Positions 11,227 to 36,152 of a DNA stretch of 64,000 nt are shown in pieces. The DNA is from Dictyostelium discoideum (Eukaryota). The stretch is from the NCBI GenBank assembly GCA_000004695.1, contig CM000151.3, positions 4,128,001-4,192,000 on the forward strand. The letters are read 5' to 3'. A program made the position numbers and the translations under genes. The notes beneath the pieces are model-generated. The model was given only the letters and a program-made list of their open reading frames with translations, had not been told where the DNA came from and searched no databases. Numbering within the stretch: the stretch's first letter is position 1; each line of letters starts with the position of its first letter.

Positions 11227-13041
11227 TTAATAAGCATCATAAGCATTTTCAACGATTAATTTAGCTTGAGCAACTATTTCTGGATTAACAGTATAGTCAG
11301 CTTGTTGACCATTAATTTGACGAATAACTTCTTGTTCTAATTCAGAAGTGATTTCAAAAGCAGCTTCTGCCAAATCTTGGTTTTCAATTTCTTCTGGAAC
11401 CAATTGACGTTTAGAAACACCTAATCTGGCGAATAAACCTGGGTTTTCAGCATCTTCTTGATTATTACCATTTAAACCAAGACCAATATCAAGACCTAAT
11501 AAATCATTAGTATTTTCTTTTTCTTGTCTTGATTTTCTACCTTGTCTACCTTGTTTTGATTTTCTTGATTTTCTTGATTGACTTTCTTCAACTTTCTTAT
11601 TAACATTGTTTTCATTTTGATTTTGTTCTTGATTAGCATCATTCACTTGATTATCACCATTTTCTTGATTATCTTTGTTTTCTTGATTAGCTTTGTTTTC
11701 TTGATTAGCTTTGTTTTCTTGGTTTTGTTTGTTGGCAACGTTTACATCAGTTTGAATTGCAGCAGATTGTTTAGAGTTTTCACTTTGTTTTTGTGCAGCA
11801 TTATTTCCAATTTCAATACTTAGAATTGATTTATTGTTGTTTTTTTCTTGTTGATTTTGTTGAGCTTGTTGGTTTTGTTGAGCTTGTTGAGCTTGTGGAT
11901 TTTGTTGAGCTTGTTGATTTTGTTGAGCTTGTTGATTTTGTTGAGCTTGTTGATTTTGTTGAGCTTGTTGATTTTGTTGAGCTTGTTGATTTTGTTGAGC
12001 TTGTTGATTTTGTTGAGCTTGTTGATTTTGTTGAGCTTGTTGATTTTGTTGAGCTTGTTGAGCTTGTTGAGCTTGTTGAGCTTGTTGATTTTGTTGTTGG
12101 TTTTGTTGAGCTTGTTGTTGATTTTTTTGTTGTTGATTTTCTTGTTGATTTTGTTGTTGTTGTTGATTTTGTTGATTTTGTTGTTGATTTTGTTGACCCA
12201 AACCAACTTCAATGTTTAAAATTGATTTGTTACTATTTTGTTTTTGGTTATTTTGTTTATTCAACTCTTCTTGTTGTTGATTATTTTGTTGATTCAATTT
12301 TTCTTGTTGTTCATTCTTTTGTTGACTCAATTGTTCTTGGTTTATTTCTTGTTTTTCATTTTGTTCTTGTTTTTCATTCACTTCTTGTTTTTCGTTCACT
12401 TCTTGTTTTTCATTCACTTCTTGTTTTTCATTCAATTCTTGTTTTTCATTCACTTCTTGTTTTTCATTCACTTCTTGTTTTTCATTCACTTCTTGTTTTT
12501 CATTTTGTTCTTGTTTTTCATTTTGTTCTTGTTGAATTTTGCTTTGATTATTTTTATTTTCTTGATTGTTTTCTTGATTGTTTTCTTGATTGTTTTCTTG
12601 GTTTTTTTCTTGATTGTTTTCTTGGTTTTTTTCTTGATTGTTTTCTTGATTGTTTTCTTGATTTTCTTGATTAAGTTCCATTTCTAGATCTTGGAAATTA
12701 TGAGTGGCTTCAATTTGTTTAATTTCTTTATCCAAGTTATTTTCTTGTTCATTTTCATAATTGTAACCTTCATTCCATTTTTTATTAACGATTGACCATT
12801 CTGGATTTTGTTCATTATGATTTTCATCAAGGACCATTAAATGGAACATGTTCTTCCATTCATCAACGTATTCTTCCATTGATGCCAATCTATTATAGAT
12901 TGATTGTTGATATGGATTCAATTGAGTTTGGTCAATATTTTCAAACCATTTTTGTAATTTAACATCAGTAGTGGCACACTAGGAAAAAGAAAAAAAAAAG
13001 AAAAAAAAAAAGAATAAAAAAAAGAAAATTAATTTTAATAA

Positions 13042-13170: not shown

Positions 13171-14215
13171 TTTATTAATAATTTAATTTATTTTTTTAGA
13201 AAAAAAAAAAAAGGAATGATACAAATTGTACAATTACTATTATTTTATAATATTATTAATATTATTTTAATGGAAACTTGATACTAGATAAACCAAAAGT
13301 CAAAGTAAAAAAAAGAAAAAATTATTAAATAGTAAAAAAAAAAAAAAAAAAAAATTAAATTAATTATAATAAAGAAAAAAAAAAAAAATGAATAAAAAAA
13401 TTAATATGAATTATATATATAACAAAAAAAAAAAAAAAAAAAAAAAACTCCCACTAAACACACTAATTATATTGCAATGGTATATTTAACAAAAAAAAAA
13501 AAAAAAAAAAAATTATAATAATAAAATTATTTAAATTATTGTCATATTCACAGTCTACTAAAAATTAAATCAACACTCACATATACATTCACACATTTAC
13601 AAAAAAAAAAAAAAAAAAAAAAAAATTATTTTACACATTAATAATACACCCAAACACTCCCACTAAAAATGCAATGGTGTGTTTTTCACTACCGGCATAT
13701 TTAAATTAAAAAAAATAACAATAATAAAAACTAACACCCAGAATGAATTAAGAAAATTTACAAAATTTTTTTAATTTTTTACACAATAATTGCCAAAAGA
13801 ATCAAATAAATTAAAAAAAAAAAATAAATAAAAAATCAATAACCAATGGTCATTGGAAGAGAGATAACTAAAAATAGAAAAAAGAAGTAAAAAAAAATTT
13901 AAAAAAATAAATTAAATAAAAAATAATTTTGTGATGTAATTTACATTTTTTTTTTTTAATTATTTTTTTTAATTATTTTTTATTATTGTAAAGTAGTTAA
14001 TTGATAAAAAAAATTAATTAAAGTGAAAATAAAATTATATAAAACGAAAAAAAAAGAAATAAACATTAATGGGTCTAAATGTGACATATCACCATATTTT
14101 TTTTTTTTTTTTTTTTTAATTAATTTTTTAAATATTAGTATTTTGTTTTGTTTAGATAATTTTTTATTTTTTTTTTTTTTTTTTATTTTTTTTTATTTTT
14201 TTTTATTTTTTTTTA

Positions 14216-14464
14216 TTATTTTTTATTTTTTTTTATTTTTTTTTTATACATACAATAAATTCTTTTTTCAGTAGAAGTAGCAAAAAATAGACAAGTTTCA
14301 GATTCAATTTTAAGTTGAGCTCTATGATAAATATCTAATAGAAAGGGTTTCTTTTTATTAAGTTCTGCCATTGATCTTTCTTTAATTTCTTTAATTTCTC
14401 TTATTTCTCTATCTTTATATTCTTGAATTGCTTTTAAATATTCCACATTTGACATTCTATTCAT
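14216..14464 (-). CDS. Small novel protein, paralogue A (first exon 14464..14254 is certain; 3' end unresolved)
   Basis: MNRMSNVEYLKAIQEYKDREIREIKEIKERSMAELNKKKPFLLDIYHRAQLKIESETCLFFATSTEKRIY, then donor T|GTATGT at 14253 splitting a codon after its first T. The ORF-track tail (CMYKKKIKKNKK) is probably intron read-through. Shares about 60% identity with the gene at 15227..15496. Confidence 0.5.
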   Translation of the reverse strand: MNRMSNVEYLKAIQEYKDREIREIKEIKERSMAELNKKKPFLLDIYHRAQLKIESETCLFFATSTEKRIYCMYKKKIKKNKK

Positions 14465-15114
14465 TTTTTTCTTAATTTATTTATTTATTTTTATTTGATT
14501 ATTTATTTTTTTTTAAAAAATTTATTTATTTTAATTTTTTTTTTATTTGTTTATTTATTTTTGTTTTTATTAAAATTACGTAATTTAAGTATAAATAAAT
14601 TAAATTTTATTTTTATATTAAACTGGGTATTTGATTAAAAATAAAAATAAAAAAAAAAAATTATTTGAAAAAATAAATTAAAAAAAAAAAAAACCATTTA
14701 AAATATTTTAAATCTTTTCCCAGAGAAACAGAAAAAAAAACCAAACCAGGAATTTTATTATTCACGAATGATAGGATTTTGTCGACAGAATAAAAATAGT
14801 AAGAAAATGTGAAAATAATAAATGTTAACCTTTCGACAAAGTAGCAAAATAGTTAAAAAAAAAAATAAAAAATAAAAAAAAAAAAAAATAAAAAATAAAA
14901 AACAAAAAATAAAATAAAATAAAAAAAAAAAACTCTGATCAAAACAAAAATATTTTTTTTTTATTTTTTTTATTTTTTTTTTTTTATTTATTTATTTATT
15001 TAATTTATATTATTACAAAAAGGATTTAAGTAAAATGTTTAAAAAATTATAAGCACTAAAAATACATAAAATAAAGAATAATATGTCTGTATTATTATTA
15101 TTATTATTTCATTT

Positions 15115-15146
<32 letters not shown>

Positions 15147-15226
15147 GGCACCAGTATTAGTAAAAATTTTATTATTATTATTATTAAAATTATTATTATT
15201 TTTTATTATCATTATTACTATTACTA

Positions 15227-15496
15227 TTATTGTTTTTTTTTTTTTTGATTAAAAAAAAAAAAAAAAAAAATCAAAATTATACACATACAGTAAACACTTT
15301 TTTCTTGTGTAGTACCAAAATATACACCAGTTTCGGCATCTATTTTAAGTTGGAATCTATTTATTCTATCTAAAAGTGATTTCTTTTTATTAAGTTCAGC
15401 AAGAGATTTCTCTTTAATTTCTTTAATTTCCTTAACTTCTCTTTCTTTATATTCTTTAATTTCTTGTCTATATGAGGAATTTGACATTTTATTCAT
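15227..15496 (-). CDS. Small novel protein, paralogue B (first exon 15496..15289; 3' end unresolved)
   Basis: MNKMSNSSYRQEIKEYKEREVKEIKEIKEKSLAELNKKKSLLDRINRFQLKIDAETGVYFGTTQEKSVY, then donor T|GTATGT at 15288 at exactly the homologous position and phase as paralogue A. Same strand, about 1 kb apart. Confidence 0.5.
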   Translation of the reverse strand: MNKMSNSSYRQEIKEYKEREVKEIKEIKEKSLAELNKKKSLLDRINRFQLKIDAETGVYFGTTQEKSVYCMCIILIFFFFFFNQKKKKQ

Positions 15497-16031
15497 TTTA
15501 TTATTTTATATAATTTAATTATTTATTTGAAATTTTATCAAAAACACTTTATTATATTATTATTATACAGGTCGGGGTTTATATATATATATATATGTAC
15601 CGGTGACTGGTAATTATGGCTATCACTTATAAAAAGCCTGTGTGATTATTTACAGTCTGTTTTTGAAAAAAAAAGAAAAAAAAAAAAAAAAAATGAAAAA
15701 ATAAAAAAAAAAAAAAAAATAAAAATAAAAATAAAAAAAAATAAAATTTGTAAAAATCTAATGGAAGACATAACATTGCTTTAAAATTTAAACAGTAACC
15801 TTATAACATGCACCAACCAAAAAAAGATTTCTTTTTTTTTTTTTTATAACAAATCAGGAAATTTTAAAAATTTTTTTTTTTTTTTTTTGTTTTATTTTTG
15901 ATTTGTTTTGATTTTTTTGTTTGATGTTTTTATTTGCACTATTATTCTTTCTCTGTTTTTTTTTTTTTTTTTTTTTTTGTTTGATTTGTGTGTACTTTTA
16001 CTTAATTTTTTTTTTTTTCTTTTCTCTTTTT

Positions 16032-16584
16032 TTAAGCATGATTTACAGAAGAAGCAGTATTACTACCACCATTTACATTTAATTGACCTTGAGATTTTCT
16101 AAAAGATTCTTTTTCAGATAATTTTGAACTGATATGTTGAACGATTAGATCTATGGCAACTACATTATCAGCACCTCTTGGAATAATGACATCGGCATGT
16201 TTCTTGGTTGGAAGGATATAGTCATCGAAAGCAGGTTTAACAAATTTTTCGTATTGATATAAAACACCCTCGAGACTACGACCTCTTTCAGCGATATCTC
16301 TCATAACACGACGAGATAAACGAGTATCAGAATCTGTGTCGACAAAGATCTTAATATCCATTTGCTCTCTCAACGATTGTGTATAGAATGATAAAATACC
16401 TTCGAATAAAATAACATCAACATCACCTAATCCTACTGTTTCTTCTAAACGTGAATGACTCTTGAAACAATATGTTGGAATTTCAATATCTTTACCATCT
16501 TTTAAATCTCTTAATGCATTTTCAACTAATGACCAATCAAAAGCATCTTAATAGTTTTTAAAAATAAAAAATTAAAAAATTAAT

Positions 16585-16620
<36 letters not shown>

Positions 16621-16859
16621 TGTGCTAGCTAGAATCGCTTACCTGGATGATCAAAGTTATAACTTGCAACAGTTTCTCTATCTTCTTTTGATAATGGTCT
16701 ATAGAAAGAATCTAAACAAATTATGGCAATTCTTTTATTTTCTAAACGTTTCATAATTTCGTCACATACTGTGGTTTTACCTGATGCTGTTCCACCAGTG
16801 ACACCAATGATGAATGGATGTTTACTATGACTGGTATTGTTGTTTTCCATATATTTCAT
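16032..16859 (-). CDS. Uridine-cytidine kinase (uridine kinase), 2 exons, 243 aa
   Basis: Exon 1 16859..16643 with P-loop [12 protein letters not shown] and ..SYNFDHPG|GTAAGC; exon 2 16546..16032 (acceptor CTATTAAG|): [108 protein letters not shown], near-identical in motif order to human UCK2. Total 732 nt. Confidence 0.9.
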
Positions 16860-34446: not shown

Positions 34447-35430
34447 AAAAAAAAAAAATAAAAAATTAATATAAATAATTAAAATAATAAAAAAATATAA
34501 AATAGTGTGTTGTTAATGAAAAATTATTAAATAACGGTTATGTTGATTCTTTTTTTTTTTTTTTTATTTTATTTTTATTTTATTAATTTTTATTTTTATT
34601 TTTATTTTTATTTTAAATTTTATTTCTAAAAATAAAATTCTATTTAAAAAATATGAGATGTAAATATTTTTTTTTTTTTTTTTTTTTTTATTAAACCAAT
34701 GCAAATTTGGAAAAAAAAGAAAATAATAATTAAAAAAATAAAAAAAATTGAATGATCCTATTAAAATTATTTTTTTGATTTTTTGTTTGATTTTTTTTTT
34801 TTAATTAATTATATGTTGACATCATAAAAAAGCCCCTTTTGTTGAAAATAATAATAATCATTCAAAAAAATTAGTGGTAGATGTGTATAATTAAAAAAAA
34901 AAAAAAATATCATTTGTGTGTGGGGGTGGGGGTGGTGGTAGTGTGCATAATTAAAAAAATAAAAAAATAATAAAATGAAATAAAATGAAATAAAATCATA
35001 TAATAAATGGCAAAATTATTTTTTTTTTATTTTTTAGTTTTTATTTTTTATTTTTTAATTTTTAGTTTTTATTTTTATTTTTTTTTTTTTTCTTAATTAT
35101 GTATATAAATAGGTGTGTCATTAATGAATTAAATGGAAAAAAAAAATTCATTTAAATGAGTCGATAATTATTAAAATGTGTTGTCGCCCCTTTCTTTTTT
35201 TTTTTTTTTTATAAAAAAAAAATATATATATTTATAAATATATAATTTATAATGGTATTTATTTTTACTATTATTCAAAAGTAAATCTATCTTAAGGATA
35301 TTCGTTATATTTGGTTTTTTTTTTTTTTTTTTGGTTTTTTTTTTTTGGTTTTTTTAAAAATTCTAATAATCCCTTTTAATAAATAATCGGTTTCTATTTC
35401 CCTGGTAAGATAAACATTCACTCGCTTCCT

Positions 35431-35930
<500 letters not shown>

Positions 35931-36152
35931 TTAACTATCAGAGTGGGAAAGAATTTGTAAATATGAGTTTGTTAAAAAGGATGCAATATTAATTTTTTCG
36001 ACAGAGTTTCTATTTTTGATACCATCTAATTGATAAATGTTGATCTTTGGTTGCTGATTGGTAATTGTTACACCTTTTCTATATGGATTGACAATACTTG
36101 GTAAAACTAATAAAAAGCCAACTAATAATACTAAAAAATATTTAATTTCCAT
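35931..36152 (-). CDS. Small ORF (73 aa) with strong N-terminal signal peptide, ending immediately before the (GAT)n array; possibly exon 1 of a secreted His-rich protein
   Basis: MEIKYFLVLLVGFLLVLPSIVNPYRKGVTITNQ..SHSDS*. Hydrophobic h-region; no other support. Confidence 0.25.
   Translation of the reverse strand: MEIKYFLVLLVGFLLVLPSIVNPYRKGVTITNQQPKINIYQLDGIKNRNSVEKINIASFLTNSYLQILSHSDS

Follow-up and report, generated by a model that had tools for sequence, protein, structure and literature searches.

Two tandemly duplicated, paralogous genes on the minus strand of a Dictyostelium discoideum contig (CM000151.3, assembly GCA_000004695.1, positions 4,128,001 to 4,192,000) encode small proteins with one predicted C-terminal transmembrane (TM) helix. 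This 64,000-nucleotide stretch is the window of our analysis. The genes, here termed A (13983-14464) and B (15013-15496), have two exons each, with spliced products of 100 and 93 amino acids (aa). That they are real genes of this structure is close to certain. From sequence comparison, we consider it somewhat probable that their products are highly diverged small subunits of serine palmitoyltransferase (SPT) of the ssSPT type, and we propose them as candidates only.

D. discoideum is a model for sphingolipid biology and for lipid exchange between host and pathogen. Full activity (30-100-fold) and acyl-CoA selectivity of the SPT in yeast, animals and plants depend on a small subunit. In a reconstruction of the D. 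discoideum sphingolipid pathway, an ssSPT homologue was reported as not found (Listian et al. 2024, PMC11402645).

Gene models and their conservation in D. firmibasis

The window is extremely AT-rich, with a G + C content of 15-31% in 2-kb windows. The two minus-strand open reading frames (ORFs) of the original prediction are present as described, with 82 aa for gene A (14216..14464) and 89 aa for gene B (15227..15496), both opening with ATGAAT. Their first exons, thought to be about 60% identical, share 59% identity (tblastn, E 4e-20). Each ORF has a single GTATGT, located after 211 nt in A (ATT TAT T/GTATGT) and after 208 nt in B (GTT TAC T/GTATGT). In both, one T of the next codon is left before the donor, giving a phase-1 intron. 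The identical donor (TAY T/GTATGT) and the common intron phase were thus correctly seen from the start.

Exon 1 of gene A (14254..14464, 211 nt, ATG at 14464) holds codons 1-70 and the first base of Tyr71, and matches residues 1-70 of DDB_G0274711 with 100% identity. The intron (14075..14253, 179 nt, phase 1, GTATGT...TTTAG, 92.7% A + T) ends at 14075 with the only AG found within 420 nt downstream. Exon 2 (13983..14074, 92 nt) contributes the last two bases of Tyr71, codons 72-100 and the TAA at 13983-13985, appending the tail YPLMFISFFFVLYNFIFTLINFFYQLTTLQ before the stop. The TM helix, residues 72-90 (14016-14072), lies within this exon. Both the acceptor and the tail-anchor-like helix had been proposed for gene A before; one residue of the tail had been misread, I for T.

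For gene B, the original prediction offered nothing but short tails or a stop codon split across the intron, having overlooked the acceptor at 15087. Four AGs are available, and the nearest ones (15224 and 15218) give low-complexity tails of 61 and 59 aa. The AG ending at 15087 (aatacag/AC) restores the split Tyr codon (T/AC) and appends the tail YILFFILCIFSAYNFLNILLKSFL, which is homologous to the tail of gene A, with an invariant YNF in both. The resulting model has an exon 1 of 208 nt (15289..15496, ATG at 15496) with codons 1-69 and the first base of Tyr70, and an intron of 202 nt (15087..15288, phase 1, GTATGT...ATACAG, 90.6% A + T). Exon 2 has 74 nt (15013..15086), with the last two bases of Tyr70, codons 71-93 and the TAA at 15013-15015, and it carries the TM helix (residues 71-89, 15028-15084). 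Over 93 aa, the spliced A and B proteins are identical at 56% of positions (BLASTP, E 1e-33), far above chance. No third copy of the family was found within the 64-kb window, and an Rfam scan of 13400-16100 gave no match.

Spliced B, used as a database query, retrieved two neighbouring D. firmibasis proteins, both annotated with two exons: RB653_001951 (90 aa, 88% identity to the gene B protein at 97% coverage) and RB653_001950 (98 aa). Conservation in a sister species, the absence of which the first prediction had named as counter-evidence, is therefore found, and for the whole tandem pair. The D. firmibasis locus is collinear with the window, with a uridine-kinase/phosphoribulokinase (PRK) gene, a B-like gene, an A-like gene and a Q/N-rich gene of ~570 aa. 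The reconstructed D. firmibasis introns are in phase 1 and split the same Tyr codon (TAT T/gtatgt...ag/AY), with 86 nt in B and 83 nt in A. Intron position and phase are identical in all four genes of the two species, and intron length and sequence are free to vary. The D. discoideum introns, of 179 (A) and 202 nt (B), compare with 83 (L001 8919-9001) and 86 nt (L001 8200-8285) in D. firmibasis. The surplus in D. discoideum is made up of poly-A and (AAAAATAAA)n-type low-complexity sequence, suggesting that the introns of A and B expanded in D. discoideum through simple-repeat growth.

At the nucleotide level, exon 1 of gene B and D. firmibasis L001 7988-8206 are 85% identical, and 22 of the 23 residues of the gene B tail are identical to the D. 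firmibasis orthologue P0002. The tail of gene A aligns with that of gene B and with the D. firmibasis orthologue P0003. In a blastn comparison of the upstream regions, run with no low-complexity filter, A/T tracts swamped the result, and usable matches were limited to the exons. The ratio of nonsynonymous to synonymous substitution rates (dN/dS; Nei-Gojobori, D. discoideum vs D. firmibasis) was 0.11 for the whole coding sequence of gene B and 0.22 for its exon 2 alone (2 nucleotide changes). For gene A, the values were 0.36 and 0.30, respectively. All four reading frames are intact. Reading through the introns gives tails that are not conserved between the paralogues, and the D. firmibasis B frame stops after two codons. 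Taken together, the shared intron position, the synteny, the dN/dS values and the non-conserved read-through make the two-exon models secure. The earlier claim that these are genes and not chance ORFs holds, given the syntenic pair with the same intron codon and the purifying selection on both exons.

The public record of strain AX4 tells a different story. There, gene A is the unspliced 82-aa ORF DDB_G0274711 (XP_644023.1, Q556E4), a hypothetical protein without exon 2. An exact look-up of 10 alternative A and B products in a collection of 15 billion proteins matched only this 82-aa form, and none of the eight plausible gene B products was on record. The annotation would be right if A were unspliced, B were no gene and the GTATGT and tails were fortuitous, or if the copies were pseudogenes. 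We find this barely credible: the read-through tails diverge and the spliced ones are conserved, the intron has the same position and phase in four genes, and dN/dS stays at 0.11-0.36, exon 2 included, with four intact frames. The AX4 model of gene A is wrong, with exon 2 missing, and gene B has apparently been left unannotated. In a tryptic digest, the product of gene A would be recognised by the peptides (K)PFLLDIYHR and IESETCLFFATSTEK, and that of gene B by IDAETGVYFGTTQEK.

The two copies evolve at very different rates. Between the species, A is only 57% identical, compared with 88% for B, which makes B the conserved and A the fast-evolving copy. The two A proteins are no closer to each other than A is to B. 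The orthology of A between the species rests on position and shared indels. Within species, exon 2 of A vs B gave a dN/dS of 1.38, from only 23 codons.

Protein architecture and similarity to SPT small subunits

In the alignment of the four proteins, DdA and DdB of D. discoideum (Dd) and DfA and DfB of D. firmibasis (Df), residues 1-40 are highly charged and include the invariant block EYK.RE..EIKEIKE. From this alignment and an AlphaFold 2 (AF2) model of P0003, a charged, K/E/R-rich N-terminal helix is placed at residues ~6-39 in both gene A (14348..14449) and gene B (15380..15481). The model has residues 11-40 entirely as helix, with a predicted local distance difference test score (pLDDT) of 91-96. 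Conservation along the protein is highest in this EIKEIKE-containing helix. A juxtamembrane segment follows (residues 45-71), with invariant R48, Q50-L51-K52, E56-T57, T63, E66-K67 and Y70-Y71, and the motif QLKI[DE].ET[GC].[YF].....EK..YY.

Up to residue 70, the proteins are hydrophilic and charged. The sole hydrophobic window spans residues 71/72-89/90 (mean Kyte-Doolittle 2.1-2.3), so that the phase-1 intron lies precisely where the juxtamembrane segment meets the TM helix. The helix ends 4-10 residues before the C-terminus, and its N side carries 15-17 Lys + Arg, from which a cytosolic N-terminus is inferred. The K/R-rich part would therefore face the cytosol, with the C-terminal helix anchoring the protein in the membrane of the endoplasmic reticulum. 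With just one TM helix, located no more than ~30 residues from the C-terminus, a helical N-terminus that is likely cytosolic and no N-terminal signal or TM segment, the proteins belong to the tail-anchored class. This class is defined by architecture, not by homology, and is silent on function. The Pfam scans of the family gave no match to SNARE or any other tail-anchored family model. Size (93-100 aa), one TM helix and an N-terminus predicted as cytosolic from the charge distribution also agree with an ssSPT.

The family had been called unrecognisable, which holds at curated thresholds. Below them, a reproducible match covers the C-terminal 55 residues: in a Pfam search of 24,736 models, PF11779 (small subunit of serine palmitoyltransferase-like) was the only recurrent match. 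It was the top or only match for DdB, DfB, DfA and the family consensus (18.6-22.7 bits, E 8e-5 to 1.4e-3). Full-length DdB scored 20.0 bits (E 5e-4), DfB 18.6 bits and DfA 21.1 bits. With the C-terminal domain alone, scores were 22.0 (E 1.3e-4), 20.5 and 22.7 bits (E 8e-5), respectively, and 19.7 bits for the consensus. The register was constant across matches, at profile positions 3-49 of 54, corresponding to residues 45-85 of DdB. Four further models (MmeI_TRD, WipA_N, Phage_Gp23 and EFHB) matched one sequence each, with E-values like those of shuffled sequences, and were dismissed.

Three differently built tests point to this family in one register. As a null for the Pfam search, we used 148 shuffles in which the N-terminus was kept and the juxtamembrane and TM blocks were shuffled separately; none matched PF11779, even at E <= 0.1. 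An hhalign comparison of the four dictyostelid proteins with 14 genuine ssSPTs (vertebrate A and B, Arabidopsis) gave P 0.007-0.008 and paired dictyostelid residues 56-84 with residues 23-51 of human SPTSSA. Its score was reached by 6 of 1200 within-block column shuffles (p = 0.005). In the reciprocal direction, a hidden Markov model (HMM) built from the four proteins alone scored Arabidopsis ssSPTa with 11.4 bits, a value reached by 2 of 3000 shuffles (p = 7e-4). For human SPTSSB and SPTSSA, the same HMM gave p = 0.04 and p = 0.08. The Arabidopsis ssSPTa and SPTSSA alignments were in the same register. The similarity to the ssSPT family thus exceeds a null matched for composition and architecture, as a moderate signal and not a decisive one.

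The ssSPT-like core is interrupted by the intron in both genes. In gene A it is ETCLFFATSTEKRIYYPLMFISFFFVLYNF (14031..14299, residues 56-85), in the register given by hhalign and the reciprocal HMM. In gene B it is ETGVYFGTTQEKSVYYILFFILCIFSAYNF (15043..15334, residues 55-84), with the PF11779 match and the same hhalign register. Over 30 aa, aligned ungapped, the dictyostelid cores agree with Arabidopsis ssSPTa at 8-9 positions (G-L-Y, E-[KR], V-L, F and Y-N, with identical spacing). The BLOSUM62 scores against Arabidopsis ssSPTa are 25-46 for the dictyostelid cores and 27 for human ssSPTb, which has 6 identities. Retained parts of the core motif are the G/L/Y before the selectivity position, E33, the basic residue 34, the aromatic residue 37 and Y50, followed by N as in Arabidopsis. 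The residue aligned to the acyl-CoA selectivity site is hydrophobic, F in DdA (F61), DdB (F60) and DfB, and I in DfA.

Several results weigh against an ssSPT assignment. Every PF11779 score is below the curated gathering threshold of 29.8 bits, meaning that formal membership fails, and canonical ssSPTs score far higher (Arabidopsis ssSPTa 80.1, human SPTSSA 82.7 and SPTSSB 62.8 bits). DdA had no match to PF11779 or any other Pfam model, either in full length or with the C-terminal domain. The best matches of the shuffles to any family reached E ~1e-3, indicating that Pfam E-values are ~5-10x optimistic for this composition. The four sequences are homologous, and their PF11779 matches are thus not independent. 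The hhalign probability was only 5-6%, and a vertebrate-dominated ssSPT HMM scored the four proteins with 2-9 bits (empirical p 0.002-0.09). Seven columns are invariant in the ssSPT reference alignment. Of these, E33 and Y50 alone are retained, with F37 replaced by Y; the invariant W32 and N38, and also L29, are not conserved. A profile of the four proteins found no match among all PDB sequences. An exhaustive HMMER search of 1.84 billion representatives with the C-terminal domain, queried with the D. firmibasis orthologues, found only the two D. firmibasis proteins and no intermediates. The AF2 monomer of P0003 is one continuous, featureless helix (residues 3-97, pLDDT 85) and is uninformative. 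Neither Q556E4, DDB_G0274711, sptA nor sptB occurs in the supplementary files searched for a D. discoideum Sac1 pull-down, among which the proteomics table was probably not included.

These results would fit a dictyostelid-specific tail-anchored family that has a charged helix in the cytosol but no relationship to SPT, and that could act as an organelle tether, adaptor or regulator. Its likeness to PF11779 would then be a coincidence of short juxtamembrane and aromatic-rich TM segments. The sub-threshold scores, the inflated E-values, the missing hallmark residues W32 and N38 and the failure to find relatives outside two Dictyostelium species all speak for such a family. So does the 40-aa invariant EIKEIKE helix, the most conserved part and one without ssSPT counterpart. 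We regard this explanation as quite possible, though at less than an even chance: it leaves the agreement of the three tests on one family and register (0/148, 6/1200 and 2/3000 shuffles) to coincidence, and no alternative family scores better. For the ssSPT assignment, p-values of ~1e-3 to 5e-3 per test, the non-independence of the tests and the failed formal membership hold our confidence to little above even. It is not lower because the sole matching family of 24,736 has the right size class and topology, with a single TM helix, and is a component reported missing from this organism.

Two other searches for relatives were made. A word-indexed search with A and B returned only DDB_G0274711 and the D. 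firmibasis pair, a weak negative, as the index missed obvious paralogues. With A as query, the D. firmibasis pair was not returned, and with B, DDB_G0274711 was not; both queries are short proteins rich in low-complexity sequence, for which a negative from this index carries little weight. A scan of Joint Genome Institute (JGI) metagenomes for family members gave 600 pattern matches, none of which was confirmed.

Compared with ssSPTa and ssSPTb (SPTSSA/SPTSSB; Arabidopsis 7YJK chain C, human 7K0I chain C), A and B are likewise small, single-TM proteins with a positively charged N-terminal side, and occur as two paralogues per genome. The ungapped 30-residue core has T-G-L-Y-[hydrophobic], E-[KR], an aromatic residue, and Y-N 15 residues later in common. 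A and B differ in their scores (19-23 bits, with a threshold of 29.8 and 63-83 bits for canonical members) and in lacking conservation of the Trp that is invariant in LEPWER/LDWWER and of the Asn in FN. They carry an extra charged N-terminal helix of 40-45 aa, absent from canonical ssSPTs. After the TM helix they have 4-10 residues, whereas known proteins have 12-17, and the chain-length position is Phe or Ile instead of Met or Val.

Harrison et al. 2018 (PMC6148460), reviewing work of the Dunn laboratory, describe ssSPTs as ~9 kDa proteins with a cytosolic N-terminus and one TM segment, of which only a TM-spanning core of 33 residues is required and the N- and C-terminal parts are dispensable. 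With dispensable termini, the N-terminal extension of A and B is compatible with an ssSPT function. The same authors place the choice of acyl-CoA chain length in a single residue and state that yeast Tsc3 has no significant similarity to ssSPTa/b. Genuine members are very divergent themselves, human and Arabidopsis ssSPTa matching with only 27.7 bits (phmmer). Judging from the divergence among the known small subunits, extreme divergence is normal for this class.

Tsc3 (PDB 8C80 chain D, against which we checked its sequence) is a small SPT activator, and its overall layout is nearer to A and B than that of the compact animal and plant ssSPTs. Its 80 aa comprise an extended cytosolic N-terminus, through which it binds Lcb2 (PMC10550967), and a TM helix at the very C-terminal end; by eye, this end resembles that of A and B (IFS...IL.K..FL). 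A and B could thus be counterparts and homologues of Tsc3 specifically, not of ssSPTa/b, which we consider very unlikely. Smith-Waterman scores did not exceed those of block-shuffled Tsc3 (p 0.09-0.96), and the dictyostelid HMM gave Tsc3 -3.4 bits, a score at least equalled by 2588 of 3000 shuffles. Homology to Tsc3 was rejected on this shuffle-level similarity; what remains is an analogy in layout, within the same functional class.

Neighbouring features of the window

Immediately downstream of gene A, a 564-aa ORF (11227-12921, minus strand) is built almost entirely from tandem repeats rich in Q, N, E and K (NEKQE[VQ], QQAQQN, ENKANQ). Its syntenic counterpart in D. firmibasis (L001 10114-11920) has 572 aa, indicating a conserved gene for a low-complexity protein. 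Two ORFs immediately upstream of gene B (16032-16373 and 16629-16859, minus strand) look like exons of one gene of the uridine-kinase/phosphoribulokinase family. The P-loop is in the upstream ORF, and the syntenic D. firmibasis gene carries PF00485.

Farther away, a near-perfect array of ~500 bp at 35430-35928 has ~160 copies of (TGA)n = (GAT)n = (ATG)n (Tandem Repeats Finder score 662). This array accounts for the GC-skew spike of 0.61 seen at 34-36 kb. It overlaps a mechanical ORF (35432-35992, plus strand) and, depending on the frame, would code for a very long stretch of one residue, for example poly-Asp. No tRNA genes were found in the window with ARAGORN.

A possible place in sphingolipid synthesis

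The large subunits and regulators of SPT known from D. discoideum are SptA, SptB, one Orm (DDB_G0288847) and Sac1 (PMC10550967), with no recognised small subunit. A pull-down with GFP-Sac1 from D. discoideum brought SptA, SptB and an Orm-like protein (Schäfer et al. 2023, PMC10550967), and this co-purification indicates that an SPT complex, the SPOTS complex, exists in the organism. The pull-down names SptA, SptB and Orm only, and no small subunit is mentioned. The accession of the raw data is printed as PDX039848, presumably PRIDE PXD039848. A Dictyostelium ssSPT was not named in the literature searched up to mid-2026.

If the favoured ssSPT assignment is right, the juxtamembrane-plus-TM part of A and B would be a diverged homologue of the ~33-residue core of ssSPTa/b (PF11779). 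The proteins would dock on the SptA/SptB (LCB1/LCB2) heterodimer and stimulate the condensation of serine with acyl-CoA. Phe60/Phe61, corresponding to human Met28 and Arabidopsis Met19, would sit near the end of the acyl-CoA tunnel. By analogy with the long N-terminus of Tsc3 on Lcb2, a further contact to SptB on the cytosolic side could come from the additional N-terminal helix.

The presence of two isoforms would parallel ssSPTa and ssSPTb of animals and plants. The long-chain bases reported for D. discoideum are mainly 18:0;3, with a minority of 20:0;3. In mammals, a difference of this type depends on the small subunit present. A link between the A/B pair and the C18 and C20 bases of D. discoideum is speculative, and both D. 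discoideum proteins carry Phe at the aligned selectivity position.

The boldest version of this proposal, which we consider unlikely, would see A and B as the long-missing dictyostelid SPT small subunits, with an ssSPT core at the extreme C-terminus fused to a charged cytosolic helix, bridging Tsc3-type and ssSPTa/b-type activators and suggesting a common ancestry for both. The EIKEIKE helix would then be a new regulatory handle on SPT, and the copies B and A would differ in the acyl-CoA preferences that they set (C18 vs C20 long-chain bases).

Whatever the function of A and B, one reference gene model is corrected, another is added, and a conserved dictyostelid family of small tail-anchored proteins is defined. 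For the SPT small subunit that was listed as not found in 2024, there are now two concrete candidates. There is also a likely reason for the oversight: the exon 2 missing from AX4 removes the TM half of the core, which would have hidden gene A from homologue searches.

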